Shown: positions 5,030-29,840, counted from the stretch's first letter. The stretch: 64,000 nucleotides of DNA from a bacterium UBP15_UBA6099 (GCA_002435745.1 DIWT01000004.1:19096-83095); one strand, 5' to 3'. Translations and numbers: made by a program. Notes: generated by a model not told the origin, from the sequence alone.

Positions 5030-5857
5030 ATGTCGGTAGTAAACACAAACATTTCCGGTCTGATAGGACTGAACAATCTGAGGCTGACGAACCTCGGATT
5101 GCAGACGTCGCTTGAAAGGCTGTCGTCGGGGCTGAGAATCAATCACGCCTCAGACGACCCCAGCGGACTTGCCATCGCCAAAGGGATGGAGGCGCAGATC
5201 GGCGGCATCCGCACAGCAGTGCAGAACGCCGAGGACGGGATCAACCTGATCCGCACCGCCGACGGCTCTCTGAGCGAGACGCACGACATCCTGATGAGGA
5301 TGCGAGACCTCGCGGTGCGCGCGGCTAACGAGGCAACGCTCACATCCGCCGACCTGACGAGGCTCAACAACGAGTTCAACAGCCTCATGGCCGAGATCGA
5401 CCGCAAGTCGGACGCCGTCACGTTCAACACGAAAGTTCTGTTTGACGGCACGTTTTCCGCCGGACAGGTGCTTCAGATCGGTCCGGACAACGGAGCCACT
5501 TTCCAGTTGACCGTGCAGATTAACGACCTCGATTCCACAGGTCTCGGAATCAACACGGCTTCAGTGGGAGTGGTCGCAAACGCCCAGTCGGCGATCGACT
5601 ACATCAACAGCGCCATCAACCAGATATCCGACGTGCGCGCGAACCTCGGCATACAGGAACGCCGCCTCGGCCACATCATCGACGACCTGAAAGCGGCCGA
5701 TATAAACATCTCCGCCGCCAAGAGCCGCATCTACGACGCGGACATGGCAGTCGAGATAAGCGAGTTCACCCGCCTGCAGATACTCCAGCAGAGCGGCACG
5801 GCGATACTCGCTCAGGCAAACGCTCAGCCGCAGAGCGTGCTCCAGCTTCTTAAGTAA
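5030..5857 (+). CDS. Flagellin (275 aa), paralogue 3 (mosaic of 1 and 2)
   Basis: Same conserved termini. The central residues alternate between paralogue-1-like and paralogue-2-like blocks. Confidence 0.95.
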   Translation: MSVVNTNISGLIGLNNLRLTNLGLQTSLERLSSGLRINHASDDPSGLAIAKGMEAQIGGIRTAVQNAEDGINLIRTADGSLSETHDILMRMRDLAVRAANEATLTSADLTRLNNEFNSLMAEIDRKSDAVTFNTKVLFDGTFSAGQVLQIGPDNGATFQLTVQINDLDSTGLGINTASVGVVANAQSAIDYINSAINQISDVRANLGIQERRLGHIIDDLKAADINISAAKSRIYDADMAVEISEFTRLQILQQSGTAILAQANAQPQSVLQLLK

Positions 5858-5883
5858 CATCTCGCAAGACCTGAAATCCTGAC

Positions 5884-5942: not shown

Positions 5943-7898
5943 TTATCTTTCGTTCACTGCGAATTGAAGCCCTTTGAGACGTTTGCGGAGCGCCGCCATC
6001 TGGCGCGCGTGCGCCTCCGAACAGTTTATCTTTATGTCCGCGCCTTTGCGGGAAAGAGATTCGAGCATCCTGCCGAATGCCTCAGAATCCAGACGCGCCA
6101 AAGGCGCAAGGTTTATGTGAACAGCCTTGACGGCTATCTTCTTTTCGTTGAGCGTGTTAATCAGTCTGCGCATGGTTTTCTCTTTTACAGAGCCGCGAAG
6201 GTAAACCGAAAGCTCCGCCTCTCCGCCTCTGTTTTCGAGGAAAGCCCATGCTTTGCGGAGTTTAAGGAGGGCAGTGGCGCGGGCGGCGGAACACGCGGCG
6301 GCGGCGACCTCAGCCGGCTCCATCCTGAACCGGGTGACTATCGCTCGCGGGTTGTGGGGATGGAACTCCCTCTCGTATCTCATCCGCGCCGCGCTCGCCA
6401 TGAGCCAGACCGCCGAGTTGGCTATGAAATGCGCCGGGTTTCGCGCCCCGAACTTTTCGGCGAACATCGCCTCTATGCGTTCAGCTTTCTCTTTCATCTG
6501 TTTTTCCGGGGCGAGCCATTTAAGGGCGGTCAGCGCGTGACGGTATGCTTTGCATCTGCGAACGGCGGTTTCATATCTCGCCGCCATCATCGGGTCTCCG
6601 CTCTTGTAATGAGGGGAATTCAGCCCCTGAATCATGGCCTCGCCGACCCTGAGTATGGACGGGCCAAGCTCGCGGAACTCGCGGGCGAACGCTTCTTTAG
6701 TCGTCACCGCGCTTTCCTCCCGCGTGAAGTGCGGGTGCTTGAACCACAGCATGTGTTGCCCGTGCCATTCCTCATACGGCACGTCGTCCAGCAGTAGCCC
6801 TTGCTCCTTGTATTCGAGGTAGAGTCTAGTCTGCGGCAGGGGGCCGAGCTGCATGAACTGCGTGAAGTCCGGCTTCAGGCTTATCGCGAAATCGATGTCC
6901 TCGTTGATGCTCTCTTTGTCGTGATGTTCAAGGAAAAGGATGGACGATGCCAGCACGAATATCCCGTTCGCGCGGAGTTCGGCGATGAGCGCCTGAACGT
7001 CGATTCCTTTGGTTTTCTCGAACAGGTTCCGCTTGGACTCGACGCCTATCCACACGTAGTTGACGCCCAGCGCCATCATGTTGTCCACGCCGAACGCCGT
7101 TATCGCCTCTGCGGACGAGAAAACGCTGAAGTTGAACGGCCGGTTGTGCTCGCGCATGAGCGCCAGCAGTTCCATCGCTCTGTCTTTGTGAAGGAGAAAG
7201 TTCTCGTCCATCACGAAGAAGTCGTTTGTCTTAAGCTCGTCCGCGAGCCGCACGCACACGTCGAATATGTCTTTGCCCGTTTTCAGGAACGGGGTGTATT
7301 CCTTGTCGTAGAAGTGGGACGTGCAGCAGAACCGGCAGGCGTTCGGGCAGCCAACGCCGGGCACTAGCACCGCGCCCTGTTGCGTGAACGGAAGCCCGAG
7401 AATCCTTTTGTGGTCCGCGGCGGGCATCGCCGGGTGCTTTATCGGCGCGTTCATGTCCTCTCCCAGCAGATTCCTCAGCTTGCTGATTCCCTCTCCGGGC
7501 AGAACATGGTCGCAGTCGATCAAAGTCTCGATGTCGGGGATTCTCGAACCGTGGCCTCCGAGGATTATTTTCGTCTGCGGCGAAACCTCTCTGATTATCT
7601 CCGCCATCCTTCGCGCTTTCACGAAGTTCGGGGCGATGAAGGAAATGCCCACGTAGTCGTAGCCTTTGGCAAGCTCCTTGCGAAACTGTTTTATCGATGG
7701 GAAGTCGAGCACAGTGGTGGGAGTGGACAGGTTCTCCGCGATGAAATAGAGGCCGAAACTCCTGTGATTGTATCTGAGCGAGAAAATGCCTTGCTCGCGG
7801 GTCACCTGATTGTGGAACAGTTCGAGTTTATTTTCCTTGCGGCCATAGGCGTCGTCTACGCCGAACGGCCTGAATACCGATGTAAGCAGTAATTTCAT
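5943..7898 (-). CDS. B12-binding-domain radical SAM protein with a ~180-aa C-terminal extension (STAS-like?)
   Basis: The N-terminal region has a cobalamin-binding-like pattern (YDYVGISFIAPNF...KIILGGHG), followed by the radical SAM cluster motif GVGCPNACRFCC (CxxxCxxC). Total length is 651 aa. Confidence 0.8.
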   Translation of the reverse strand: MKLLLTSVFRPFGVDDAYGRKENKLELFHNQVTREQGIFSLRYNHRSFGLYFIAENLSTPTTVLDFPSIKQFRKELAKGYDYVGISFIAPNFVKARRMAEIIREVSPQTKIILGGHGSRIPDIETLIDCDHVLPGEGISKLRNLLGEDMNAPIKHPAMPAADHKRILGLPFTQQGAVLVPGVGCPNACRFCCTSHFYDKEYTPFLKTGKDIFDVCVRLADELKTNDFFVMDENFLLHKDRAMELLALMREHNRPFNFSVFSSAEAITAFGVDNMMALGVNYVWIGVESKRNLFEKTKGIDVQALIAELRANGIFVLASSILFLEHHDKESINEDIDFAISLKPDFTQFMQLGPLPQTRLYLEYKEQGLLLDDVPYEEWHGQHMLWFKHPHFTREESAVTTKEAFAREFRELGPSILRVGEAMIQGLNSPHYKSGDPMMAARYETAVRRCKAYRHALTALKWLAPEKQMKEKAERIEAMFAEKFGARNPAHFIANSAVWLMASAARMRYEREFHPHNPRAIVTRFRMEPAEVAAAACSAARATALLKLRKAWAFLENRGGEAELSVYLRGSVKEKTMRRLINTLNEKKIAVKAVHINLAPLARLDSEAFGRMLESLSRKGADIKINCSEAHARQMAALRKRLKGLQFAVNER

Positions 7899-8099
7899 TG
7901 TGTAACCTCATCTCCGCCGGGGACGCTGACTGCGGATGCGCGTCCGCCGAGTGTCATAATGATAGCGCCTGTGACACGAATGTCCATAGAAAAGAATAAT
8001 GGTTTATGGGCTTTGTAGCTTCTGAACAAAAAGACAATAGTGAAAATACAATTCTGCGTTATTAAGATGGGAACAACAGGAAAACAATATTTCTCACCA

Positions 8100-8128
8100 T
8101 TGACAATAAGTGAATTTGGCATTAATAT
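8100..8128 (+). promoter_or_regulatory. Candidate sigma-70-type promoter of the island cassette
   Basis: TTGACA (8100-8105), 17-nt spacer, TAATAT (8123-8128). It lies ~40 nt upstream of the first island ORF. Confidence 0.4.
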
Positions 8129-8168
8129 TGGCACCTAATCTGAATCAGGCTTTTCATACCCAGCCGCG

Positions 8169-8750
8169 ATGGGGAGTGTAGTTTTGAAAAAATATTCTAA
8201 AGAAAAATATGGCAATACGTTGCTTCAAATCGAAGTGTTTATACCAAAGAGATTGACAAATCTAGGTAAGCTTGTCGAACTTCTTGAAAACATGCTTGAT
8301 TTCAGAAGAGCGAAAGAAGATCTGATTTGTCGAGCAAATGAAATATTTGAGCAGACAGAATGGGGCAATGAAGGAATAAAGAATATAAAACAGGCTAAAA
8401 ATAGAATTAAACAGATAGAAAAATGCATTCATGGATATTCTATTTATGAGGTTGACGGGGCTTTCGAGACTTCATGCGACATGAAGACCAGCAAAATAAG
8501 AAAATCGGATGTGAGGATTTGTGAAGAAAGAACAATGGTTGTTAGAATGCTTGCATACGCCGATCCAACCGAGGAGGAAAAGAAGGATAACGTTGATTTT
8601 TTCAATACGAGAAGCGTTGTCGACGCGCTTTTAGTTGCAAATGAATATTTGGCATTTAAGATCGCAAGCGATGTTGCTGAGGAGGATGAGATTTGGGTAA
8701 CAGCAAGTAAAGTATGGTCAAGTATCTGGAAAAAACATAGCGATGACTAA
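8169..8750 (+). CDS. Hypothetical protein (193 aa), first gene of the AT-rich island
   Basis: This is the only long ORF in the interval, and its codon usage matches the island. No motif recognised. An alternative TTG start at 8184 lies 7 nt after GGGGAG. Confidence 0.55.
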   Translation: MGSVVLKKYSKEKYGNTLLQIEVFIPKRLTNLGKLVELLENMLDFRRAKEDLICRANEIFEQTEWGNEGIKNIKQAKNRIKQIEKCIHGYSIYEVDGAFETSCDMKTSKIRKSDVRICEERTMVVRMLAYADPTEEEKKDNVDFFNTRSVVDALLVANEYLAFKIASDVAEEDEIWVTASKVWSSIWKKHSDD

Positions 8751-8931
8751 AATACTGGAGATTGGAGAGTATGACATAAATTGAATAGTGGGCGGCGCAT
8801 GGCTGATTTCACAATGGATTTAGTATCATTCGGAATAATTTAAAGACATTGACAAAGAATCGATTAATGTCTTAAATTTTAAGACAGAATAAATGTATGA
8901 AAAATGAAATATAATATAATGGGGGGCTAAA

Positions 8932-9078
8932 ATGTTTGAGGACGATAAGGGATTGATTAACAATAATGAAATCGAAAATGATACACTGGAATTGGAATGG
9001 GAAGTTGCTGTTCCAGTTGATAGGTCAAGAGTAAGCCACATGTATTGTTTTAAAAACTGTTCCGTTAACTCTAATTAG
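8932..9078 (+). CDS. Candidate RiPP precursor peptide (48 aa), not in the supplied ORF track
   Basis: The ATG is preceded by GGGGGG with a 5-nt spacer. Translation: MFEDDKGLINNNEIENDTLELEWEVAVPVDRSRVSHMYCFKNCSVNSN. It has an acidic N-terminal half and a C-terminal CxxxC. It sits 111 nt upstream of the RRE-rSAM-SPASM gene on the same strand. Confidence 0.55.
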   Translation: MFEDDKGLINNNEIENDTLELEWEVAVPVDRSRVSHMYCFKNCSVNSN

Positions 9079-9189
9079 AATGGTTAGGGAGAACATCAAA
9101 CTGAAATCTTCTTGAAGGAGTGATATACTTTTTTCGAATTTAAATATGAAGGAAAAGAAGTAGCAAAACAGACAGTTAGAACAACTTTA

Positions 9190-10503
9190 TTGTTACATCA
9201 CTCTTATGCTGTTCCTCAAAATGTATCAGTTGTTAGAAAAGACGATGTTATTTTGGTAATTAATCCACAAACAGCTAATTGGCTGGTGCTAAACGATATT
9301 GAATTAGAAGTATATTTTTTGCTCGCAGAAGGAATAACAATAAAAAAGGTCATAGAGAAGATTTCTAAAAAAAGCAACTGTAATCAACATGCCTCTTCAA
9401 TTGTCAAAAGATTTCTTGCTCAATCGGAAGCTAAACAATTCAACAAAACTGTTGGGACTGTGTTCGCAGATTCATTTGGGATGTATGTTTTTCTAACATT
9501 TGACTGCAATCTGAAGTGTAGTCACTGTTTTCTATACGATAAACCACGACTCGGAGATCCTCTTGAAATTGAACAATGGAAAAGAATACTCATTGATTTT
9601 CAGCTTGCCGGAGGAGAAAAGATAACATTATCTGGAGGGGAACCGACACTTTTTGATTCCTTTGCAGATATCCTTGTTTTTGCACATGGCATTGGATTGA
9701 AAGTGACATTATTGACAAATGGCATGATTTTGCATTCGGAACTACTAGAATTATATTCTAACAATGTAGATGAACTCCAGATTAGCCTCGATGGACCGGA
9801 AGAGATTAGTCACGAGATGATAAGGGGAAAGGGAACTTACTTTAAGACATACTCAAACATAAAAAAAGCGTTAGACAAGGGCGTTATGGTTACTATTGCC
9901 ATGACGCCAACTTTTGAGACATTTCCATTTTTCGAAGAGCATTTTGTTCGATTTGCGAAATCTTTACTTAATGAATACTCAAATGTAAATGTTAAATTGA
10001 CACAAAAGCTTCTTCGATCAAAAATGTCGATTTATTCGGATACGGATATGAATAAATATTACGCAAAAGGAAATAGACTGATTAATAATCTTTATGAGGA
10101 TTATTCCATCAATGCGTTTTATTTAGACCACCCTGTGAATACAATACGACGCAATTGTGGTTATGGCGAGATATCAGTTATTCCAGACGGAACCGTGTAT
10201 TTATGTAGTAGGATTTGTGATTTGAAACCAGTTGCAAATTTAAAGGAATTAAAAATGGTAAACGTGATACAAATTGCACGAGAGGAGAAAGAGAGGGCTT
10301 CAGTGGAGAATATCATCCCATGTCAGCATTGTTGTTTAAGGTATATCTGTTCTGGTGGTTGCAGAATAGACGACATCCCTGATTTTTGTAATGGACAATT
10401 GACTGTAGATTGTCCTGAAGAAAGGAAGCAACAAATATTTGACATGATGATAGAATCAAACAATATGTATTTCAATATAGAGTATAAACCAAATAATGAA
10501 TGA
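9190..10503 (+). CDS. Radical SAM/SPASM peptide-maturase-like enzyme with a PqqD-like (RRE) N-terminal domain
   Basis: CxxxCxxC motif (FDCNLKCSHCF) and GGEPTL. C-terminal auxiliary-cluster cysteines are present (CGYGEISVIPDGTVYLC...PCQHCCLRYICSGGC). The N-terminal ~90 aa fit the PqqD/RRE pattern (VILVINPQTANWLVLNDIELEVYFLL..GITIKKVIEKI). The start is TTG; there is no in-frame ATG upstream. Confidence 0.8.
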   Translation: MLHHSYAVPQNVSVVRKDDVILVINPQTANWLVLNDIELEVYFLLAEGITIKKVIEKISKKSNCNQHASSIVKRFLAQSEAKQFNKTVGTVFADSFGMYVFLTFDCNLKCSHCFLYDKPRLGDPLEIEQWKRILIDFQLAGGEKITLSGGEPTLFDSFADILVFAHGIGLKVTLLTNGMILHSELLELYSNNVDELQISLDGPEEISHEMIRGKGTYFKTYSNIKKALDKGVMVTIAMTPTFETFPFFEEHFVRFAKSLLNEYSNVNVKLTQKLLRSKMSIYSDTDMNKYYAKGNRLINNLYEDYSINAFYLDHPVNTIRRNCGYGEISVIPDGTVYLCSRICDLKPVANLKELKMVNVIQIAREEKERASVENIIPCQHCCLRYICSGGCRIDDIPDFCNGQLTVDCPEERKQQIFDMMIESNNMYFNIEYKPNNE

Positions 10504-12898
10504 AGAACATAAACATAAAAGCATATTAATTATATTTATAAATTGGGCTCATCAGCCTAGGATCAGGATAGTCCAGCGAACATATGCTGCTAGAAACAGC
10601 CCCTCTCCCAATGCAATAAAAGATATTGATCATATCAATCCATCATTGATTGCGCAATTTCCTGACGATCTTGACAAAAAGTTGTTGGGTTGGCTGATGG
10701 TGCCTCACAAAGCATTGCTTCCAGACCCGGTCAGGGTCAATGATATACCTGTTGGAATAATCAATGAATACATAAAGCGCAAGCGTGCCTATTATTCTCC
10801 TTCAGGAAAAAACAAATCCTTAAAAAGAATATATTCTGTAGATATTGACATCCCTAATGTTGGTGTATATTCTTGGAGTATCAATGAACGAAATCTAATT
10901 TTGAGTAGTAGTTTTATTGGCGACGATATGGTTATCATTGAGAAACATCCTATTATGATAATCTCAAGAACAGAAAACAATAATTATGTTGGTATTCCAT
11001 ACGCAAGGGTAAAACACAACGATGGTTATGTGCCTTTGTTTTCTTTTAGTAAGGAAGCGACATTAACACTGCTAAGTCAATTAATTAAATGTGCAAGATC
11101 AGAAGATTATCTTTTGTGGTATTTTCCTGACAACATGTATGAATTGTCATTATCGATTGAAACACTTATAAACGATGGTTGGGATATCGAATATGATGAC
11201 AAGAAAAGAGTTGTAAAAACGACTCGATGGAATATGAAAGCAAATGATAAAACCGATTGGTTTGAAATTGATGGAGTTGCTCAATATAATGACAGCACAT
11301 TGTCTATATCAGAAATGCTTGCGGCATTGAGAAAGAGGTCGGCTTTTGTTGCGTTAGAATCAGGGGGTATAGCGGTTCTTCCTTCAGATTGGATAAAAAA
11401 TATTATTCCAATGGAACCATATCTCTCTGCAAATATGAGAATATCCAGATCATTCGTTGGATTAATAAGTGCGTCAACAAGCATCAATTCAGAGAATAGT
11501 ATTAGTTACAAAATAGCAAGAAAACTTATCTCAGCGCAAAACAATTATGAACCGGTATTATGGGATGGTAAATGTCTGAAACCATATCAGAATTGTGCTG
11601 TAAATTGGCTTAATGAAGCATATAAACAAAACATTGGATGTCTTCTTGCGGATGAAATGGGATTGGGTAAAACCATTGTTACTCTTGCTCACCTGTCTTT
11701 ATTTAAGGGAGATCATCTTATAGTAGCTCCAGCTTCAATCATATCTAATTGGATTCATGAAATTGAAGTAAATTTACCTAACGCAATGTGGTCTCTATGG
11801 GGATCAAAAGAAGAACAATCTGATTCTTCAAGAACCAGCATATATTTAATGAGCTATCAAACCATGCTTAGAAACATAGATGCGATAACTATGAAGCGTT
11901 ATATGGTAGCAGTATTCGACGAATCACAGTATTTAAAAAACTCATTTTCGATGACGGCGAATGCAGCAAGGAAAGTTAAATGCAATCAAGCTATCGCATT
12001 AACAGGAACACCAATTGAGAATAATGTATCGGAGTTGTGGAGTCATTTGAACCTTGTTGCGCCGAATTGGCACAATAATCGAAGGAATTTTGAGACTATT
12101 TGTAGCGAAGCAACCAAGAGTGATGCCTCGTTGATTCATCTTAGAAAAGCTTTGTCTCCATTTATATTGAGAAGAACTAGAAGTGATGTTTTAAAAGATT
12201 TACCTGATTTGAATATCGAGATAATAAGATGTGAGTTGAGTGAAGACCATCTAAAGCTCTACAAAAAATGGATGATATCAGCAAGAAAGGCTTTTTCTGA
12301 CCCTGAGCATAGAACAAGAAAAAAAGGTGCGGTGTTAGAAGTGTTGTTAAGATTGAGGCAAATCTGTTGTGACCCGCTTTTGATAACACAAGACTATGAT
12401 GGTGATGTTGTTGTGTCAGGAAAAACTGAAGCAATATTAAATGCTATTATTGTGATTTCTGAATATGACAAATTATTAGTGTTTTCACAGTTTTCATCAT
12501 ATTTGGAGTTATTAAAAACCTTACTAGATAAGCATTTTGTGAATAATTTACTATTGATCGGAACTACTGGCAACAGAGATGATGTGATAAAAGAATTTAA
12601 AGAATCAGAAAACACAAATGTATTATTAGCAAGTCTTAAAGTTGGAGGCGTCGGATTGAACTTAATAGAAGCTGCTAACGTAGTATTATGTGATCCATGG
12701 TGGAATCCTGCTGCAGAGATGCAAGCATGGTCAAGAGCATATAGAATGGGGCAAAAGAAAAATGTAAATGTTATAAAATTTGTGTGTAAAAACACTATAG
12801 AAGAACGCATATTGGAGCTTCAAGAAAAAAAAGCTACACTGAATCAATTTGTGCCAGAAAAAATATCAAGCAAAGAAATTATTGAATTATTGAAATAA
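10496..12898 (+). CDS. SNF2-family ATPase/helicase (800 aa) with an uncharacterised ~350-aa N-terminal region
   Basis: SNF2_N motifs (LKPYQ, LLADEMGLGKT, DESQYLKN, ALTGTPIENN) and helicase-C motifs (SLKVGGVGLNL, DPWWNPAAEMQAWSRAYRMGQ). The ATG overlaps the rSAM stop by 8 nt (ATGAATGA). Confidence 0.9.
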   Translation: MNEEHKHKSILIIFINWAHQPRIRIVQRTYAARNSPSPNAIKDIDHINPSLIAQFPDDLDKKLLGWLMVPHKALLPDPVRVNDIPVGIINEYIKRKRAYYSPSGKNKSLKRIYSVDIDIPNVGVYSWSINERNLILSSSFIGDDMVIIEKHPIMIISRTENNNYVGIPYARVKHNDGYVPLFSFSKEATLTLLSQLIKCARSEDYLLWYFPDNMYELSLSIETLINDGWDIEYDDKKRVVKTTRWNMKANDKTDWFEIDGVAQYNDSTLSISEMLAALRKRSAFVALESGGIAVLPSDWIKNIIPMEPYLSANMRISRSFVGLISASTSINSENSISYKIARKLISAQNNYEPVLWDGKCLKPYQNCAVNWLNEAYKQNIGCLLADEMGLGKTIVTLAHLSLFKGDHLIVAPASIISNWIHEIEVNLPNAMWSLWGSKEEQSDSSRTSIYLMSYQTMLRNIDAITMKRYMVAVFDESQYLKNSFSMTANAARKVKCNQAIALTGTPIENNVSELWSHLNLVAPNWHNNRRNFETICSEATKSDASLIHLRKALSPFILRRTRSDVLKDLPDLNIEIIRCELSEDHLKLYKKWMISARKAFSDPEHRTRKKGAVLEVLLRLRQICCDPLLITQDYDGDVVVSGKTEAILNAIIVISEYDKLLVFSQFSSYLELLKTLLDKHFVNNLLLIGTTGNRDDVIKEFKESENTNVLLASLKVGGVGLNLIEAANVVLCDPWWNPAAEMQAWSRAYRMGQKKNVNVIKFVCKNTIEERILELQEKKATLNQFVPEKISSKEIIELLK

Positions 12899-12899
12899 A

Positions 12900-13475
12900 T
12901 CATAGCGGTTTGTGCCAGTTTTTGTATATGCCGCCGTAAGCGCCGGTGTCGTAGAGGTGGGCGATGACGAGGGCGACGGCGTTTTTGAATCCGGCGTCGC
13001 CGGAGATTGCGAAAGCGAGCGGGCCTGTAGCAGCGGAATAGTAATAGACTACGGACGCATGGGCGTTGTTCGGGACGGATGGGGCGGATATGACCGCCGC
13101 CGGGTCGCCGGGGAGCACGATATTGATTTTTGCTCCGAGAGCTGACGCGATGAATTTTAGCAGGTCGGGTTCGAAGCCGCGCGCGACGCCGTATTCATCC
13201 CTGAAGCACATGGGAGGGCGTTCGCAGTCCACCGCCGCGGCGATGATGCCGGAAGCGCGAGCGGCGCGCAACGTCTCGGAGTCCCCTGCGGCCAGTTCGA
13301 CATCCGCTGCGAGAACGCTTTGCACGGGGTCTCTGGCGGTGGCGGCGGGAACGGTTTCCGAGGGGACGGCGGACGGATCTTGACCCCGGGGGCATCCGGA
13401 AATCAGGACGGCAACTGCCGCCATAACCGCCAGCGCCGACGCGCGTTTCAACCTGTTGTGTTTCGGTTCTATCAT
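12900..13475 (-). CDS. Lipoprotein with a short solute-binding-protein-like domain
   Basis: Signal peptide with lipobox (VLISGC). It resembles SBP_bac_3 (GFEPDLLKFIASALG), though the domain is short. Confidence 0.55.
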   Translation of the reverse strand: MIEPKHNRLKRASALAVMAAVAVLISGCPRGQDPSAVPSETVPAATARDPVQSVLAADVELAAGDSETLRAARASGIIAAAVDCERPPMCFRDEYGVARGFEPDLLKFIASALGAKINIVLPGDPAAVISAPSVPNNAHASVVYYYSAATGPLAFAISGDAGFKNAVALVIAHLYDTGAYGGIYKNWHKPL

Positions 13476-15646: not shown

Positions 15647-15913
15647 ATCTTCTTCTCCTTAACTAACAATCGCGCCGACCTGATTTCCGCGCGTTGCAAC
15701 CAAACGAGCGCGCTAATTAATACTAATGAAAAACTCTCCGGCCAACAACACGCGTCGCGGCAAACAACCGTCCGCGCCTCTCGCCTCGGCTCATCCAGCG
15801 TTTATGCTCAAACGTTTTTAATGGTATGCAGCAGTTTGTGTTGACGCGTGATTTAAGTGAAGAGCGGGAGAAACATTCAGTCAGGCATATCGAACGAAAG
15901 TTCTTATCTAAAC

Positions 15914-18484
15914 TCATTTATTAATTGACATGTTATAAAAAACACGACTGTCCTCGGCGCTTAGCACAGTATCGTAAAGGCCGATGTCTTCGCCTTCGTG
16001 CTTATTGACGCCTATATAAATTAGACTGGAATCTTCGTATCGTTTAAACTTATAGACAGCGTCATTCATCAATGCGCTATTGAATACTCCAAGGCTTACC
16101 AACAACTCGAACTCTTTCATAGTCAGGCCGGTTACTTTCTTGAACAAACCCGGCTCCAGTTGCGTGATGACATCCTTCAGACATCGCTCTCGATAATCGG
16201 TCAAATACATAAAGATTGGCAAACGCGTGGCGAACTTGATAAGTTTTTCCTGAATCTGCTTCCGCAAGCTTTTGTATTCCTTTTCCTCCTCGGTGAGCTT
16301 CTTCTTTTCCTTTGTGGAAAGCTCTTTGTCATTTGCTTCCTTTCTCGCCTTTTTCACGGCTTCCGACTTGTTGATAATAGTCTCGATGTCCTGATTGAGG
16401 TTGCGAAAGCCTTCAATTCTCATTAGCGCATCCATAGCGGCTTTGTTGCTCATGAGCCGTTTCAGGGCTTCGTTATCCACATTAACCAGCAAAGCGCTTT
16501 CCCAGCGCCTCGCCAAAAGAGTTGCTGTAGTTCCACTCATCGCCATATCCAGAATGCCTGCGGCATTGATCTCTTTCATTGAACTGCCGTCATAGGCTAA
16601 CACTGGAAGAAAGTTTATAAACTCCGCCACCTTCTTTTCGGGATTGGACTCATCGACATTCAGTCGGCAACTGTAATCGGCGATCTGCCGCAAAGCTCTG
16701 TCCGGCGCGAAATCAAAGACATAGCATTCCTCTTTAATGATTTGCTCCCGATTCGGCGCTGTGTTGTCGGGATTCCTGATTGACCAAGGTGATTGCACGC
16801 GGAAAGCAGCCTGAAAATAGGTCTCGGGACTGGACGAATTCCGCAACATGAGGATGCCGGTCCACGGCCTTACCGTGACTCCTGTGGTCAGTTTGCCGCA
16901 TGACAGGGTAATTGTTTTGGTTGCTAAGGGATCGTCCATGGCCTCCTGCACGGGCGGCAAAGCGGCAACGCCAATACCGGCGTCGCTTCCCGCCGCAACG
17001 ATTACTTCGTAATCGCGATAGAACTTATTCTGTTTCTTCGCCATAAGGTTGCGCATTGCGTGACACGAGGCAACACTGGGCAGAAACCAGAAGGTGTGCG
17101 ATAAAACATTCAGTAATCGCGCATCGGAAAACGGCATCGGCGGTTTTTGAGCGCCCAGTTTCAAGTTGTCAATATTTGTTGCCGAGAATGAGCCGCGTAT
17201 CAAATCAAGCCACTTCTGCACTTCATCCGTGTACGTAAATTTCGCCTTGTTTCCCGCCCCGGTAGCGGAAAAAAAAGTGTTAAGATCGAACTCATTGAAC
17301 TCGCCCTGCATGGCGATTTCGCGTATCGAATCGGGCAGTTGATAGGTCATTAACACCATTCGAGGAAGCGCCGCGTATGGATTGTCCCCGCCTGTCCATT
17401 CCTGCTTGGCCCGCTGCTCGTCCGAATACGTCCAGTTAAAAATCTGCTCCTCGATGAATTCGCCGGACGCAATGGCCCTAAACGGCGTGCCGGATAGATA
17501 GAGATATGCATTCGTGGTAATCGGCATAATCTCTTCGTCAAAATCCTCAATGCCGGCGCCTTCTCCAAACTCGATTTCTTTCTTGTCCTCCGCCGCAAAA
17601 AGCTCTCTGGCGTTTTCGCGCCACGCGCCGTAGTGATACTCGTCAAGGATGACACAATCCCAGTTGGTCTCATGCGCCCATTCATTCTTGGTCTTGAGCC
17701 CCCCGGTGCTTTTGTTCTTGCCAAGGTGATCCTGAAAAGAACCGAAACAGACGAAAGGCTTCTTCTTGTCCGCGTCTTCGTATGATAAACCGCCCGGCGA
17801 GATAAACTGCCACCCTTTGAAATCAATATGGCATTTCAAGTCTTCTTCCCATGCGTTCTGCACTGCGGGCTTGAAGGTCAGCACAAGAACCTTGCGCCAG
17901 TCCATTTTCTTAGCGAGCTGATAGGCGGCAAAGGTTTTGCCAAAGCGCATTTTAGCGTTCCATAGAAAGCGCGGCGACTTATCCTTGTTTTCCTTTCTGA
18001 AACTCTTGAAATAAGCGACGGTCTTTTCCACCGCCGCTTCCTGTTCCGGTCGCATCTTGAAATCAAGCGAACGGTTTTCCTCGTTCATTTCACCAGTTCT
18101 CAGAGCAATGACCGCCGCTTTTACCTGTTTTGCCGAACATTTGAACCATTCCCCTTTGGGATTTTTGACGCCGATGGCTCGTAAGCGACGGTGAACATCA
18201 TGGTCGGTGAAGACCGTGCCGTCATTGCGCATTGCGAATTCTTCAAGGACGATCCGATACGGCGGTTTTCCCGGCCTCAATGTCGGATATTGCTGTTCCA
18301 CGCGCGTCCGGGCGTCCGCTAATGTATAGCCGACTTTGAGCAATCCCGCGTATTGAGGATTTGTGTCCTCGTAGGCGTAGATGGTCGGTTTGGAATCCGG
18401 CCGCTGAGGGAAGAAATTATCAGGTTTCCTCGGCATTGTTTCCCAGCTTCTTTTTAGTTTTTGCGGGCGGAAGAAAGTTGTCAC
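15914..18484 (-). CDS. GIY-YIG (T5orf172-like) nuclease domain fused to an SF2 DEAD/DEAH-box helicase (putative restriction subunit)
   Basis: The N-terminus fits the GIY-YIG/T5orf172 pattern (TIYAYED...GLLKVGYT...R..Q...HDVHRRL...GEWFKC). Walker A is MRFGKTFAA and motif II is LDEYHYG. A more likely start is the ATG at 18436. Confidence 0.75.
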   Translation of the reverse strand: MTTFFRPQKLKRSWETMPRKPDNFFPQRPDSKPTIYAYEDTNPQYAGLLKVGYTLADARTRVEQQYPTLRPGKPPYRIVLEEFAMRNDGTVFTDHDVHRRLRAIGVKNPKGEWFKCSAKQVKAAVIALRTGEMNEENRSLDFKMRPEQEAAVEKTVAYFKSFRKENKDKSPRFLWNAKMRFGKTFAAYQLAKKMDWRKVLVLTFKPAVQNAWEEDLKCHIDFKGWQFISPGGLSYEDADKKKPFVCFGSFQDHLGKNKSTGGLKTKNEWAHETNWDCVILDEYHYGAWRENARELFAAEDKKEIEFGEGAGIEDFDEEIMPITTNAYLYLSGTPFRAIASGEFIEEQIFNWTYSDEQRAKQEWTGGDNPYAALPRMVLMTYQLPDSIREIAMQGEFNEFDLNTFFSATGAGNKAKFTYTDEVQKWLDLIRGSFSATNIDNLKLGAQKPPMPFSDARLLNVLSHTFWFLPSVASCHAMRNLMAKKQNKFYRDYEVIVAAGSDAGIGVAALPPVQEAMDDPLATKTITLSCGKLTTGVTVRPWTGILMLRNSSSPETYFQAAFRVQSPWSIRNPDNTAPNREQIIKEECYVFDFAPDRALRQIADYSCRLNVDESNPEKKVAEFINFLPVLAYDGSSMKEINAAGILDMAMSGTTATLLARRWESALLVNVDNEALKRLMSNKAAMDALMRIEGFRNLNQDIETIINKSEAVKKARKEANDKELSTKEKKKLTEEEKEYKSLRKQIQEKLIKFATRLPIFMYLTDYRERCLKDVITQLEPGLFKKVTGLTMKEFELLVSLGVFNSALMNDAVYKFKRYEDSSLIYIGVNKHEGEDIGLYDTVLSAEDSRVFYNMSINK

Positions 18485-19280
18485 CGGTCACCACGCCGCG
18501 TCCGGTTTTCCGCTCCAGTTCCAGCCTCGCCTTTTTTGCGATTCTTCCGCCTTTTCTGCCCGCCTGCGCATTTTCATCCATGCCGGTTGCTTCAACGCTC
18601 TCCGCAATCTGGCGGGTGGAAAGCTCCGCTAAAGCTGTAAAAATCAGTTCCGCCTCGCTCATGTGGTCGCGTAGGTTTTGAGTTTTGAGGTCCTTTATCT
18701 GCTTGTGTTTCTTGACCGAAACCCCGCTCCATTCTTTGTGAATTATATTGGTCAGAATGGCGTATTCGTCTTCGCCTTTAATCTCGTGGTCTTTCCAGTA
18801 ATCGGTGAGTTTATTGCGGGTTTCCTGCCCCATCATCCGCTGCTGAATCCATTTTTCGCTTCTGCCGCTCTGTTGCCAGTAGTCGCGCGCCCGGTCAAGG
18901 GATCGGGCCGGATCGCTCATGTCCTGAATGCGCTCGTAACCCGCTTTGGCAAGCCATAGCTTGATGGGTTCCGCTCTGGGACTGGGAACCGACTGTATGA
19001 TTCGCAGAAGAGCCTCCGGGCCGGCCGCGTCGGTCAGGTATTTTTTCCCGTCAGCGGCTTCCATTTTCAGTTGGTGACAATTTGTCACCGACTGATTTCC
19101 CTCTTTCTTGAGGCGTTCTTTCAACTTGTTCCAGTACTTCCGGGCAGTCTGATAATCCGGCTGCTGAATCAGCGCGGCGATGATATCCACAACGGAAAAC
19201 AACCATGTTTCTGTCTTTTCATCATAAATCCTGCGGATTTTAAAGTTTTCAAAAACCGCAAGCGCCTTTTCTTCATTCAT
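18420..19280 (-). CDS. Bro-N / DinD-like (DNA-damage-inducible protein D family) protein
   Basis: The N-terminal pattern FENFKIRRIYDEKTETWLFSVVDIIAAL and the overall 286-aa layout match my recollection of this family. It overlaps both neighbouring genes. Confidence 0.55.
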   Translation of the reverse strand: MNEEKALAVFENFKIRRIYDEKTETWLFSVVDIIAALIQQPDYQTARKYWNKLKERLKKEGNQSVTNCHQLKMEAADGKKYLTDAAGPEALLRIIQSVPSPRAEPIKLWLAKAGYERIQDMSDPARSLDRARDYWQQSGRSEKWIQQRMMGQETRNKLTDYWKDHEIKGEDEYAILTNIIHKEWSGVSVKKHKQIKDLKTQNLRDHMSEAELIFTALAELSTRQIAESVEATGMDENAQAGRKGGRIAKKARLELERKTGRGVVTGDNFLPPAKTKKKLGNNAEET

Positions 19281-20781
19281 TGTTAATCTCCATCGGTCGA
19301 ACTATTAAGTCAATAAAATCAATTTCGTCGTCTGACAAACCAAAATGAGCGAAGAGTTTTTCGTCTGTCCATATTTTTGACATAGGCAGAAGAGGCACAA
19401 ATGAAAATTTGTCCTTTGTGTTGTCCTGTGTGTTTTTGCGTAAGCCCACCAGAAACCGCAGAAACTTTGTTCTAAGATATTTGTCCAGATTTTTTGCGGC
19501 GCTTTCGGTTTCATAAGCTCCAACTACAATGTAGGTCTCGGTGCAAGCGCTGGATGGAGGCGCTATAATCGGCTTGCCCATTATCATTCGTGGATAATCG
19601 CGAGCTTCACCTCCTTCCCCGTATGCCTTAGAAATTAGAACCTTCCACAAATCCAGCAACTCCATTCCATTTTTGATGTCCGATTTTTCTATCCATCCGA
19701 CAGTTTTTGTTGCATACAATTTAATGTTGCCTTTTCCAGTAGGCCGGACAAATGTCGGGAGCCCAAATGGTTTTCGACTATAGATTTGTTCACTTATTGA
19801 TGTGTATTTCTTTTCTTTTACCTTTTCGAGAATCGAAATAGCCTTATTGAATCGAACAAATGAATCAAATTGATCCAAAGAGCGCTTCATCGTATCATCC
19901 ATGCCACTCATGCGTGTAGTTACTTCACATTGACCGCTGTAATCCCGCTCCCATAAAAAATAACATACACCGCCAATCACCTTGACGCCGGGGAAAACAT
20001 CAGATGCTATTGGATAGTCAACCAAATGAGAGATTCTGCGATCCTTTAGCATTGTATCGCGAAAAACATCCAGCCCTTTCCCACCGGCAAACCATCGGGA
20101 TGGGATAATCATTGACAAATATCTCGGTTCAAGTTTTTTAGCTTGTTCGACAAAATTGTGATAAATAGGAGATGAGCCTGTGCTATCTCCAGCATCACTC
20201 AACTGATACGGTGGATTACCTATAATTACATCAAATTTCATATTGAATATCGCCTCCGGATTTTCCGTGTGAATAAATTGATAGGCATGGGTTTCGAGTT
20301 CTTCGCCCCGCTCATAGCTTTCCTGACTGGCGCCGCAGAAAACGCAGCGCCCGTTTTCCCATGTGTGCTCCACTCGCTCAAAGCGAATATTCCCTTGCGG
20401 GTCGTCGAAAGTTTCACAGACGGAGTATTTTCCATTGGCCGTTTTGGAGCAGTAAACAGAACGGCGGGAAAGCAACGCGGTCAACTCAGTTATTGCCACG
20501 CCGAAGATCTGGTTCTTGAAGATGTGGTTGATTCGAGCCTGCCTGTCCGGGATTTTTTTTTCAAGCCCCGCATCCAACCGCCTTGCGATTTCGCGCGGAA
20601 ACACACCGGACTTACAGAACGGATCGAGAAACCGGGTGTTCTTATTGCCCCAGATTTCCGGAGGCAGCAAATCCAATATTTGATTAACCAATTGCGGCGG
20701 CGTGAACACTTCGTCGCTGCTCAGATTGGCCAGACAGGTCAGCACATCCGGGTTGTAGCTATTGCCTGTCAACATCGGCAA
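19273..20781 (-). CDS. Eco57I-type N6-adenine DNA methyltransferase
   Basis: AdoMet motif LDPFCKSGVF and catalytic motif IIGNPPYQ. The downstream pattern SPIYHNFVEQA...IIPSRWFAGGKGLD is typical of this family. Confidence 0.8.
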   Translation of the reverse strand: MPMLTGNSYNPDVLTCLANLSSDEVFTPPQLVNQILDLLPPEIWGNKNTRFLDPFCKSGVFPREIARRLDAGLEKKIPDRQARINHIFKNQIFGVAITELTALLSRRSVYCSKTANGKYSVCETFDDPQGNIRFERVEHTWENGRCVFCGASQESYERGEELETHAYQFIHTENPEAIFNMKFDVIIGNPPYQLSDAGDSTGSSPIYHNFVEQAKKLEPRYLSMIIPSRWFAGGKGLDVFRDTMLKDRRISHLVDYPIASDVFPGVKVIGGVCYFLWERDYSGQCEVTTRMSGMDDTMKRSLDQFDSFVRFNKAISILEKVKEKKYTSISEQIYSRKPFGLPTFVRPTGKGNIKLYATKTVGWIEKSDIKNGMELLDLWKVLISKAYGEGGEARDYPRMIMGKPIIAPPSSACTETYIVVGAYETESAAKNLDKYLRTKFLRFLVGLRKNTQDNTKDKFSFVPLLPMSKIWTDEKLFAHFGLSDDEIDFIDLIVRPMEINNE

Positions 20782-21409
20782 CCTCCAGAAAGTGCGTTAA
20801 CGGGTACTCTTTCACAGGCTCATTTAAGTATGCCTCGTTATTCTCATCGCTGAATATCATTAGTTGGTGTTGCTTGTCTACTAGAAACGAAAGCATGAAA
20901 TCGCGCCGCTTTAGCATGCTACCGTTGACCGGCGACCATTCAGAAAATATAATCGGTCGCGGATTGTTTCCCACGGTTTTCAGATCAAGCGCGTCTCCAT
21001 GAATAATATTGCGCTCAAGGATATATTTGACCGCATTCCGACATTCATTCCTTGCGCCGAATATAAAAAGGCGCGTGTAGTTCAGATCAAAGATGTCAAA
21101 AAGCCGGTTGCGACATTCCTGAACATTATCCTTAAGAATATCAATGCCGTATATGGAGGACACGGCAAGAACAGCATTCCTCTCGTACTCCAGTTGAATC
21201 TTTTCGTATCGGAATTCAACGACGCGCAATTTCCGTTCCAGAATTTCCGACAGAAAATTGCCCGTGCCGCATGCGGGTTCAAGAAACCGGGATTCGATCC
21301 TTTCTGTTTCCTGTTTCACCAGATCAAGCATGGCGTTGACTTCTCGTTTTCCAGTCAATACCTCGCCATGATCAGCGACCCTCTTCTTGGAGACAACTTG
21401 CTTTTCCAT
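20759..21409 (-). CDS. Short methyltransferase-like protein (AdoMet-binding motifs only, no NPPY)
   Basis: HGEVLTGKREVNAMLDLV (motif X-like), EPACGTGNFL (motif I), YGIDI and HGDAL are present. No (N/D)PP(Y/F) is found in the 216 aa. The gene overlaps the downstream MTase by 23 nt. Confidence 0.55.
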   Translation of the reverse strand: MEKQVVSKKRVADHGEVLTGKREVNAMLDLVKQETERIESRFLEPACGTGNFLSEILERKLRVVEFRYEKIQLEYERNAVLAVSSIYGIDILKDNVQECRNRLFDIFDLNYTRLFIFGARNECRNAVKYILERNIIHGDALDLKTVGNNPRPIIFSEWSPVNGSMLKRRDFMLSFLVDKQHQLMIFSDENNEAYLNEPVKEYPLTHFLEVADVDRQ

Positions 21410-21590
21410 GTTCTCGCAATCACTCTATAAAGCGAATAATTTTTCTTTATCCCTGTTCTGAATGTTTCGGATACCGCACCTTAATTTATCACGCCGCAAC
21501 CGGAGCGTCAATCTATGCAATCCATCACAGCTAAAAAACTGTGTGGAGAAGGCGGATGCACGACGGTTTTTTCAGAGGATGCGCGGGGCG

Positions 21591-28899: not shown

Positions 28900-29424
28900 A
28901 TGGCGGCGGAACTTCAATCTTCAAACTTCGACCAAGAGGTTATCAAGTCCTCGACCCCGGTGGTAGTGGATTTCAGCGCGGTGTGGTGCGGGCCTTGCAA
29001 GATGCTTGCTCCGGTGATAGACAAGCTGGCTAATGCTTACGAAGGCAAGGCTAAGGTTTTCAAGATGGACGTGGACAACTCGCGCGATATCGCCACGAAA
29101 TTCGGAATTCGGGGCGTGCCGACAGTCATATTCTTCAAGGGCGGAGCGGAGAAAGACAGAGTTGTGGGGCTGGTGCCATACGAAATGCTCGACAAAAAGC
29201 TTTCGGCTATGATTGAGACACCTGTGCCAGAAGCAATTAAATGTCCACAATGTCAATCAACACAAATAACATCCCAAGAAAAAGGATTCAGCTTGGGAAA
29301 AGCAGCTGCTGGCGGTGTTTTACTTGGTCCCGTTGGCTTATTGGGTGGAGTATTAGGAAGCAAAAAAATCAATGTTGTATGCTTAAATTGTGGGCATTCT
29401 TGGAGTCCGGACGCAAAAGAATAA
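28900..29424 (+). CDS. trxA: Thioredoxin with a C-terminal zinc-ribbon/hydrophobic extension
   Basis: Residues 1-108 are a canonical thioredoxin (WCGPCK active site). Residues ~109-174 contain CPQC...G/L-rich hydrophobic stretch...CLNCGH and are encoded by AT-rich DNA. Confidence 0.85.
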   Translation: MAAELQSSNFDQEVIKSSTPVVVDFSAVWCGPCKMLAPVIDKLANAYEGKAKVFKMDVDNSRDIATKFGIRGVPTVIFFKGGAEKDRVVGLVPYEMLDKKLSAMIETPVPEAIKCPQCQSTQITSQEKGFSLGKAAAGGVLLGPVGLLGGVLGSKKINVVCLNCGHSWSPDAKE

Positions 29425-29546
29425 GAGGAAATGCCTATAGAAGACGCAAAAACGATCTGTTGAAAGCATCTTGATGCAATAATCAAACCAGATTCGTTAA
29501 GGCGATGGAAGACAATATAGTTGCGATATAGAGATAAAGTTGTCGT

Positions 29547-29840
29547 CTATATATCTTTCAGAGGTTTTGCGCTGTTGCATATAGCGGCAATTTCAACATA
29601 TCCGTCTTTGAGCCGATAGACGATTCTGTAATTTTTAAAAATTCTTTCCCTGATATTTTTATCTTCATATTCTGACAGAGCGCGGCCGGCCAAAGGGAAA
29701 TCCGGAATAGATTCAACGATTGCAATAATGCGTTTTGCGAAAAGAGCCGCATAATATTCGGAGTCTCTGGAAATGAATTCGCAGACGTCTTCAAGATCGG
29801 CAATGGCTCCCGGCGCCCATCTTATTCTTTTGATATCCAT
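29547..29840 (-). CDS. RelE/ParE-family type II toxin
   Basis: 97 aa with a typical pattern (...IFKNYRIVYRLKDGYVEIAAICNS). It overlaps the upstream antitoxin gene by 19 nt. Confidence 0.8.
   Translation of the reverse strand: MDIKRIRWAPGAIADLEDVCEFISRDSEYYAALFAKRIIAIVESIPDFPLAGRALSEYEDKNIRERIFKNYRIVYRLKDGYVEIAAICNSAKPLKDI

Follow-up and report, generated by a model that had tools for sequence, protein, structure and literature searches.

The closest published description of the genes reported here is a class of restriction-modification (R-M) systems that combine a methyltransferase, a helicase and a GIY-YIG protein. Morgan et al. (2009) described this class as occurring either in split form or fused into 'large single polypeptides' with a recognition domain, and stated that it had been little noticed and scarcely characterized by biochemistry (PMC2731913). 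The YeeA(DnmA)-YeeB-YeeC cluster was predicted in the same work to be R-M-like, with modification of one strand (PMC2731913). In Vibrio crassostreae, a region carrying yeeA/yeeB together with RADAR contributes to phage immunity, and deletions of dnmA and yeeB are reported to raise the sensitivity to phage there (PMC9973331). Here we describe a related operon on the minus strand of a 64,000-nucleotide (nt) stretch of DNA from the bacterium UBP15_UBA6099 (GCA_002435745.1, DIWT01000004.1:19096-83095), and this whole stretch is called the window throughout. Its four overlapping genes, named A, B, C and D in the order of their transcription, form a block of about 5.7 kb with a low G+C content (GC) between htpX and a GC-rich open reading frame (ORF) of 862 amino acids (aa).

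We consider it likely that A, B and D form a three-component, ATP-dependent R-M system and that C is one unrelated cargo gene travelling with it. Judging from its sequence, the R-M system of the window is probably active, and all four ORFs are intact and of full length. Every ORF listed in the initial annotation was found again at its place, and all junctions overlap (by 17-23, 8 and 17 nt in the order A to D), which indicates a single translationally coupled operon. The operon had been read as R-M-type, with a GIY-YIG(T5orf172)-helicase as the putative nuclease and motor subunit and an Eco57I-type N6-adenine methyltransferase as its partner, and both domain matches and invariant residues bear this out. 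The coordinates of all features are collected in Table 1.

Relatives of D were searched for in a collection holding one genome per species, where at least 563 loci with a D relative were confirmed, and the four window proteins were mapped on the best 80 of these loci. These 80 loci encode proteins 77-98% identical to D, and some of them lie on complete chromosomes or on contigs of megabase size. They are spread over more than 15 bacterial phyla and also over Archaea (Thermoplasmata, Woesearchaeota). The gene order A-B-D is kept in nearly all of them, with A present at 57 of the 59 evaluable loci and B overlapping D directly at 50 of 73 B/D junctions. Since the gene set recurs in hundreds of genomes, its arrangement is not a matter of chance. 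An exhaustive search of representative sequences with D returned 4224 clusters at 50% identity. The four-component layout of the initial annotation thus gives way to a core of A-B-D with C as interchangeable cargo, and the arrangement, which had been put forward as unusual, belongs to a very large and already annotated family. The conserved system consists of the three genes A-B-D, the copy in the window is an ordinary, recently acquired member, and the system as a whole is a widespread, catalogued and biochemically uncharacterised variant of ATP-dependent R-M.

The module also occurs on plasmids. Separate A, B and D genes are found at 7962-12738 of NZ_CP012704.1, the mobilizable plasmid 4 of the cultured Sphingopyxis macrogoltabida EY-1, and fused forms on plasmids of Enterococcus, Lactococcus and Lactiplantibacillus. 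On viral contigs it is rare (22 loci in IMG/VR and five GenBank phage records). Among the fused relatives of D are D-B chains of 1190-1460 aa that unite T5orf172, ResIII and Eco57I domains. One such chain, P0261, aligns with residues 18-650 (35% identity) and 728-833 of D and then directly with residues 5-496 of B (30%), and the segment corresponding to D 728-833, P0261 778-878, leads straight into the methyltransferase. The upstream neighbour of P0261 is an ortholog of A (37% identity, E=1e-25, with the IVFSEW motif included), and in a closer relative, a B-D fusion has an A-like gene as its upstream neighbour. Moreover, two decayed loci have lost A and B and retain an intact D (L003, 7000-10000, and L017, 6800-8100). 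In the former, transposase-like ORFs replace A and B, and C is frameshifted; in the latter, C is intact. The retention of D in both is in keeping with a nuclease that does no harm once the methyltransferase which targets it is gone.

Protein B matches Pfam Eco57I with E=2.9e-40 and the PADLOC model MTase_II with 4e-50. Its ORF spans 502 aa from a TTG at 20781, and gene callers begin at the ATG at 20775, the probable start, which gives 500 aa. The NPPY motif is invariant in the orthologs of B (N187-Y190 in the 500-aa numbering), and a cluster of cysteines (C109/C120/C144/C147) is conserved. Residues 281-460 show a mean pairwise identity between orthologs of only 38% (22-90%), compared to 71% for residues 1-280. 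A hypervariable segment next to a conserved one classically marks a target-recognition domain that can be swapped, and we assign this role to the C-terminal part of B. By its Pfam match, the motif order X-I-II-IV with NPPY and the variable C-terminal domain, B belongs to the Eco57I family of gamma-class methyltransferases, with a predicted N6-methyladenine (m6A) activity.

Protein A has weaker relatives among the named families, namely Pfam MmeI_Mtase (6.5e-6, slightly under the cut-off), PADLOC MTase_II (1.8e-9) and a PHROG DNA methyltransferase (8.5e-14). It has more than 8000 homologs, each of about 215-250 aa among the matches listed. In a profile-profile comparison (hhalign), A aligned with the N-terminal methyltransferase half of B with a probability of 96% (E=4e-9), and by this measure A is a paralog of that half. 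The methyltransferase motifs X, I, II and III are kept (GEVxT, EPACGTGNF, YGIDI, HGDAL). An invariant PIVFSEWSP stands at the position of NPPY, so that A is without NPPY, and it is without a recognition domain as well. We also asked whether A is a fragment of B or of some other methyltransferase, or a pseudogene of either. This was ruled out, since homologs of the same length number in the thousands and A is conserved beside split and fused forms alike. From its motifs, A is probably a truncated, catalytically inactive paralog that still binds S-adenosylmethionine (SAM).

The most conserved protein of the operon is D, with 77-88% identity across phyla and in Archaea. An exact database match has 840 aa, which places the start at the ATG at 18436 and not at the GTG at 18484. 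In the 856-aa ORF that begins at the latter codon, T5orf172 covers residues 36-125 (E=5.2e-9, 37 bits against a Pfam cut-off of 20), MUG113 matches with 5.2e-6 (27.4 bits, cut-off 22.3) and Pfam ResIII covers residues 142-298 (4.3e-8). In an alignment of 35 sequences with identities down to 30%, the GIY-YIG residues Y20, K34, G36 and E96 never vary, and R45 is kept in at least 90%. The family match and these catalytic residues place D in the T5orf172 branch of the GIY-YIG superfamily. T5orf172 is known as a GIY-YIG-superfamily domain, and the T5orf172 protein Gp88 of phage ICP1 has been described as an origin-directed nuclease (PMC8263062). An AlphaFold2 (AF2) model of D has, at the N-terminus, strands at residues 18-24, 33-38 and 60-67 and helices at 42-49, 78-87 and 102-114, in the order beta-beta-alpha-beta-alpha-alpha, with a pLDDT of about 70-87 in this part and a mean of 55 over the whole model.

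In the same 35 sequences, the motor motifs I (GK167T), II (D265E266YH268), III (SG316T) and VI (Q542..F545R546) are invariant. Together with the ResIII match and with superfamily 2 (SF2) motors as the top Foldseek matches, this identifies D as an SF2 helicase-like ATPase of the ResIII type. The Foldseek matches, obtained with a model of low confidence, are generic SF2 motors of the Snf2/RapA/XPB/ZorD type. The full-length model is poor (pLDDT 55, pTM 0.39), and Foldseek was uninformative on the C-terminal region. This region had been pointed out as rich in Lys and Glu; it is so, and it is also highly conserved and predicted to be helical. Because it leads directly into the methyltransferase in the fusions, it is a likely docking or coupling module. 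Sequence and profile searches of the PDB with A, B and D returned no informative relatives: the profile of D found RapA and XPB only, both weakly, and the nearest solved relative of B is the BREX protein BrxX/PglX, a weak match (E=0.008).

Protein C matches Pfam Bro-N (2.2e-6), PHROG 15286 (1e-84) and the PADLOC model PDC-S13 (4.5e-116 over residues 1-281 of 286). It is a full-length member of PDC-S13, which PADLOC lists as a single-gene candidate; a literature search for 'PDC-S13' found nothing. C is missing from about 80% of the loci. Besides the 50 B/D junctions without any gene between, 15 of the 73 hold C-type genes, some of them remnants, and eight hold other genes, among which are YhcG/DUF1016 PDDEXK nucleases, RhuM, a DUF6088 (AbiEi-like)/AbiEii pair and a DUF6036 nucleotidyltransferase. 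Similar genes (DUF1016, RhuM, DinD-like) are reported to be inserted between core genes in Type I R-M loci (PMC9881135). On the Arcobacter cloacae plasmid pACLO (L089, 6007-6903), a homolog of C with 48% identity lies between cas4 and cas1 within a type I-B CRISPR-Cas operon, and another adjoins a toxin-antitoxin pair; neither of these loci has A, B or D nearby. The PDC-S13/Bro-N gene family is thus embedded in several kinds of defence operon. The variable contents of the slot and the homologs in the cas operon and beside toxin-antitoxin genes mark C as promiscuous cargo rather than as a subunit.

How such genes enter the operon is suggested by their ends. Every gene that precedes D, cargo or otherwise, ends in acidic (D/N)E* codons over the start codon of D, and a RhuM cargo gene (L004, about 8105-9154) ends in a duplicated C-terminal tail of B (IESKIRPMEANDE). 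The duplicated tail and the shared ends suggest recombination at the 3' end of B as the route by which cargo comes in, with the coupling into D preserved. The conserved tail of C, GDNFLPP, resembles the likewise conserved N-terminal DNFFPQRP of D (FFPPRP in the family; 18462-18479 and 18404-18421), which may reflect a shared short binding motif or coincidence. A duplication as the origin of this likeness found no support, as the PDC-S13 model spans residues 1-281 of C including the tail.

Compared with its closest published counterpart, the A-B-D module shows the same three activities in one operon, since YeeA-YeeB-YeeC consists of an MmeI-like methyltransferase, an SF2 helicase and a T5orf172/GIY-YIG protein. 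By their descriptions, the two are nevertheless set apart: nuclease and helicase are separate and the MmeI-like methyltransferase is large in the Yee cluster, whereas the module has a fused D, an Eco57I-family B of 500 aa and a small A (PMC2731913, PMC9973331). The fused D-B relatives share with the Type ISP enzymes, as these are laid out in a published account (PMC4666363), the order of nuclease, SF2 ATPase, coupler-like helices, gamma-class N6-adenine methyltransferase and C-terminal recognition domain. A single recognition domain leads one to expect an asymmetric site and methylation of one strand in both, and the mechanism is likely to be similar by analogy, with ATP-driven translocation from the site followed by cleavage. 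Type ISP enzymes, which translocate with ATP and cleave when converging enzymes collide, carry an N-terminal Mrr/PD-(D/E)xK nuclease on a single polypeptide, while the nuclease here is GIY-YIG/T5orf172, B and D are separate in the window and A is an extra conserved subunit. Sequence and profile searches detected no similarity of the A/B/D family to LlaBIII or LlaGI.

In Type I systems, HsdR is built of an N-terminal nuclease, an SF2 motor and a C-terminal helical region. The layout of D is HsdR-like, and the module shares with Type I a conserved motor and nuclease subunit next to a variable recognition module, as well as embedded accessory genes. It differs in having no separate HsdS with two recognition domains in the unit, a single domain being fused to the Eco57I-family methyltransferase, and in its GIY-YIG instead of PD-(D/E)xK nuclease. 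Type III systems pair a Res subunit with a C-terminal PD-(D/E)xK nuclease and a Mod subunit, a methyltransferase of the beta class whose recognition domain is central. Similarly, the module joins a specificity-carrying methyltransferase to a Res-type SF2 ATPase-nuclease (Pfam ResIII), and ATP dependence and asymmetric sites would be expected; the nuclease of D, however, is an N-terminal GIY-YIG domain, and B is of the gamma class with a C-terminal recognition domain. Type IIG/IIL enzymes of the MmeI kind are one chain without an ATPase motor, whereas here D contains an SF2 motor and the nuclease and methyltransferase reside on different chains. The PADLOC model PDLC03626 'REase_MTase_IIG' matches both D (2.7e-30) and B (1.3e-40), and its label refers to the fused, helicase-containing form. 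The operon lacks the features by which Types I, III and IIG/IIL are defined. The initial annotation overstated the case, as the fused form matches a 'Type IIG' model and the class had already been flagged (PMC2731913).

An identity with BREX, DISARM, MADS or MANTIS/Gao_RL was also considered and rejected. The signature components of these systems (PglZ/BrxC; DrmA/B; Mad1-8; MtsA/B/D) were not found, and the only resemblances are weak matches of N-terminal methyltransferase motifs to PglX and mad2. In MANTIS/Gao_RL, the small MtsB is needed for methyltransferase activity and the helicase-nuclease MtsD is the effector (bioRxiv 10.64898/2026.09.23.753747). By analogy, MtsB may serve as a conceptual precedent for A. 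MANTIS, however, is built of a DUF499 ATPase of the AAA+ kind, a DUF3870 protein and a nuclease-helicase of the PLD kind. All three are absent here, and the module has no PADLOC match to that system. Our literature search found no biochemical or structural study of the A-B-D family, of the A subunit or of the cargo slot.

From the domains, and by analogy with the Type ISP, Type I and Type III enzymes, we infer the methylation specificity, the modification of one strand, the recruitment of D by B, the ATP-driven translocation, the mode of cleavage and the role of A. B would read a short DNA site by means of its variable C-terminal domain, and methylate adenine at N6, marking the host DNA; with its single recognition domain, the site is probably asymmetric. 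D would have no target finding of its own and would be recruited by B at unmethylated sites, with the helical C-terminal region docking it to the methyltransferase. Its SF2 motor would then translocate along the DNA or remodel it with ATP, and the GIY-YIG (T5orf172) domain would cut or nick the DNA. A would be an obligatory third subunit and most likely a structural or regulatory partner of B, for example as the partner in a pseudo-dimer or as a sensor of SAM or of the methylation state that licenses methylation or restriction. C would be an independent hitch-hiker, co-transcribed and translationally coupled, and dispensable for R-M. The unit, with its own promoter candidate, landed recently in an intergenic hotspot between the membrane-protein gene and htpX.

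Three observations weigh against this reading. The PDB searches yielded no solved structure that is detectably related by sequence to A, B or D; the FSEW motif at the motif IV position of A is deeply conserved, and A may therefore have a catalytic or base-binding activity; and the analogous dnmA-yeeB-yeeC cluster of Bacillus subtilis gave neither restriction nor defence against phage in the conditions that were tested (PMC9973331). The failure of the B. subtilis cluster to give phage protection or a transformation barrier (PMC9973331) would suit an R-M relic of the kind proposed for that cluster, in which B would in effect serve epigenetic regulation as an orphan methyltransferase while D and A would be defunct in defence, and decayed loci such as L003 and L017 do exist. 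We regard a relic as improbable for the window, where no ORF is interrupted or shortened. The catalytic residues of nuclease and ATPase do not vary in thousands of homologs, D being better conserved than its partners, and the recent arrival of the island, with 97% nt identity to the copy in L001, argues against a long neutral decay. It would be more surprising still if the Bro-N protein C were an integral subunit of a four-component system, a reading that we hold to be very improbable. In the window, C is coupled in translation to both of its neighbours, and several other loci show this arrangement too, but C or its remnants occupy only 15 of 73 junctions while B overlaps D directly in 50. Unrelated genes fill the slot elsewhere, C homologs lie in the cas operon and beside the toxin-antitoxin pair without A, B or D, and PADLOC treats the C type as a candidate on its own.

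There is also little probability, in our view, that the module provides a methylation-based defence without classical double-strand cleavage, be it through a BREX-like block of replication, through mere nicking or with D serving chiefly as a translocase, or that its main function is selfish addiction, by which post-segregational killing furthers its own spread. The weak relationship of B to BrxX/PglX (E=0.008) is in line with the former. GIY-YIG/T5orf172 domains are common in homing endonucleases, the phage T5orf172 protein resembling putative homing endonuclease genes (PMC8263062), and the module has spread horizontally to an extreme breadth with no obvious mobility gene in the unit. However, no component of BREX, DISARM, MADS or Gao_RL was found beyond the weak N-terminal methyltransferase matches, the invariant GIY-YIG catalytic set argues for cleavage of phosphodiester bonds, and addiction and defence are not mutually exclusive. 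A bolder version of the three-component system is possible and, to our mind, rather unlikely: A-B-D may be a distinct, undescribed split Type ISP-like GIY-YIG R-M system whose function depends on a universal, catalytically dead A that senses SAM or the methylation state and licenses the nuclease-motor. In this version, the B/D junction would be a dedicated slot, coupled in translation, and its second-line defence genes (PDC-S13/Bro-N, YhcG, RhuM, AbiE) would be linked in function with the R-M complex, perhaps as PrrC-like guards set off by inhibited restriction.

Returning to the three-component system with its cargo, the operon in the window was acquired as a whole. The initial annotation had noted a block of lower GC beside htpX and a GC-rich gene and had proposed its horizontal acquisition, and both points agree with our comparisons. 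The GC of the whole island is 0.478, compared to 0.615 and 0.645 in the flanks, and in windows of 500 nt it ranges from 0.40-0.53 within the block and from 0.62-0.68 outside. The same island is present on a contig of 'bacterium ADurb.Bin236' (L001), with 97% nt identity over window positions 15848-21529 and in an unrelated gene context. In close relatives of the host (L114 and others), the flanks are 91-93% identical and synteny breaks at 15823/15824 and 21532/21533. The two independent comparisons thus place the edges of the island at 15824/15848 and 21529/21532. The site in these relatives is filled by an alternative cassette of 5.0 kb with a GC of 0.44 (L114 2818-7823, GCA_022704265.1; also L113, L115 and L116), which has four genes, for a GAF-cyclase, for two proteins of unknown kind and for another cyclase, the cyclases matching Pycsar PycC with 1e-20 and 5e-22. 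The identity to L001 and the breaks of synteny define the island as a discrete 5.7-kb unit in a hotspot of alternating acquired, defence-like cassettes, and by these genome comparisons the island is horizontally acquired.

From locus to locus, the module tracks its host in GC only in part (r=0.69, slope 0.47). The gap in the window is among the largest, which is consistent with a recent arrival. A search for an empty site with the exact HtpX protein returned island-bearing contigs only, and a relative within the 90% cluster of HtpX led to a syntenic site filled by another cassette. No tRNA gene was found in the window, nor one consistently near the module at 42 loci, and the unit holds no integrase or other obvious mobility gene. 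As to terminal repeats, there is just a terminal inverted match of 5 bp, and no non-coding ends are conserved across loci. One flanking gene is htpX (Peptidase_M48); the other, the 862-aa membrane-protein ORF, carries a Spermine_synth domain. The sequence of the promoter candidate upstream of A is conserved between the window and L001. The right-hand junctions (window 15790-15850, L001 about 5810-5860, L114 about 7785-7835) display AATCAC, 23-24 variable bases and CA(T/C)TAAA. This pattern may be due to chance, serve the gene downstream as a promoter element or represent a recombination core.

Table 1. Positions of the island, its genes and their domains in the window.
Feature	Position	Strand	Evidence
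Horizontally acquired island (mobile unit), whole operon	15824..21532	-	GC 0.478; two genome comparisons
Gene A, 216 aa, SAM-binding methyltransferase-like	20759..21409	-	Pfam, PADLOC and PHROG matches; conserved motifs
Gene B, Eco57I-family gamma-class N6-adenine DNA methyltransferase with C-terminal target-recognition domain	19273..20781	-	Pfam, NPPY
Target-recognition domain of B, about residues 281-460	19402..19941	-	Hypervariability between loci
Gene C, Bro-N domain protein, 286 aa, PADLOC candidate PDC-S13, optional cargo	18420..19280	-	Pfam, PADLOC, PHROG
Gene D, 840 aa, candidate restriction subunit (GIY-YIG nuclease, SF2 motor, helical C-terminal region)	15914..18436	-	
N-terminal T5orf172/GIY-YIG nuclease domain of D	18110..18379	-	Pfam, invariant residues, AF2
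SF2 helicase-like ATPase motor of D	16487..18061	-	ResIII; invariant motifs I, II, III, VI
C-terminal helical Lys/Glu-rich region of D, putative coupler or docking module for B/A	15917..16486	-	Conservation, predicted helices, fusions
Sigma-70-like promoter candidate, TTGACG-17-TAAATT with TG, about 74 nt upstream of A	21483..21511	-	Consensus scan only

Two other regions of the window came to our attention. At 8006-12904, a second block with a still lower GC (0.35) may be a defence candidate in its own right. Its genes encode a 193-aa protein without matches, a 437-aa radical-SAM enzyme (viperin-like in PADLOC, by the radical-SAM core only) and, overlapping it, an 800-aa SNF2 helicase with a DpdE/ZorD-like motor. 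Compared with close relatives, this block is a pure insertion in place of 85 bp. At 28900-29840, the GC dips to 0.44, and by eye a thioredoxin-like ORF of 174 aa and an ORF of 97 aa resembling a ParE/RelE-type toxin are present.

Overall, our data indicate that this family is best annotated as a unit of three genes with variable cargo. A study of A-B-D would extend the known ATP-dependent restriction enzymes by a motor nuclease based on GIY-YIG and would explain the conserved small methyltransferase-like subunit A. Moreover, A-B-D would be a tractable model for the way in which accessory defence genes are slotted into R-M operons. If the cargo slot were wired to the complex and A acted as a licensing subunit, few defence modules would be exchanged as widely between the phyla of bacteria and Archaea. 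Finally, alleles of B are probably behind many of the unassigned m6A motifs in environmental methylomes.

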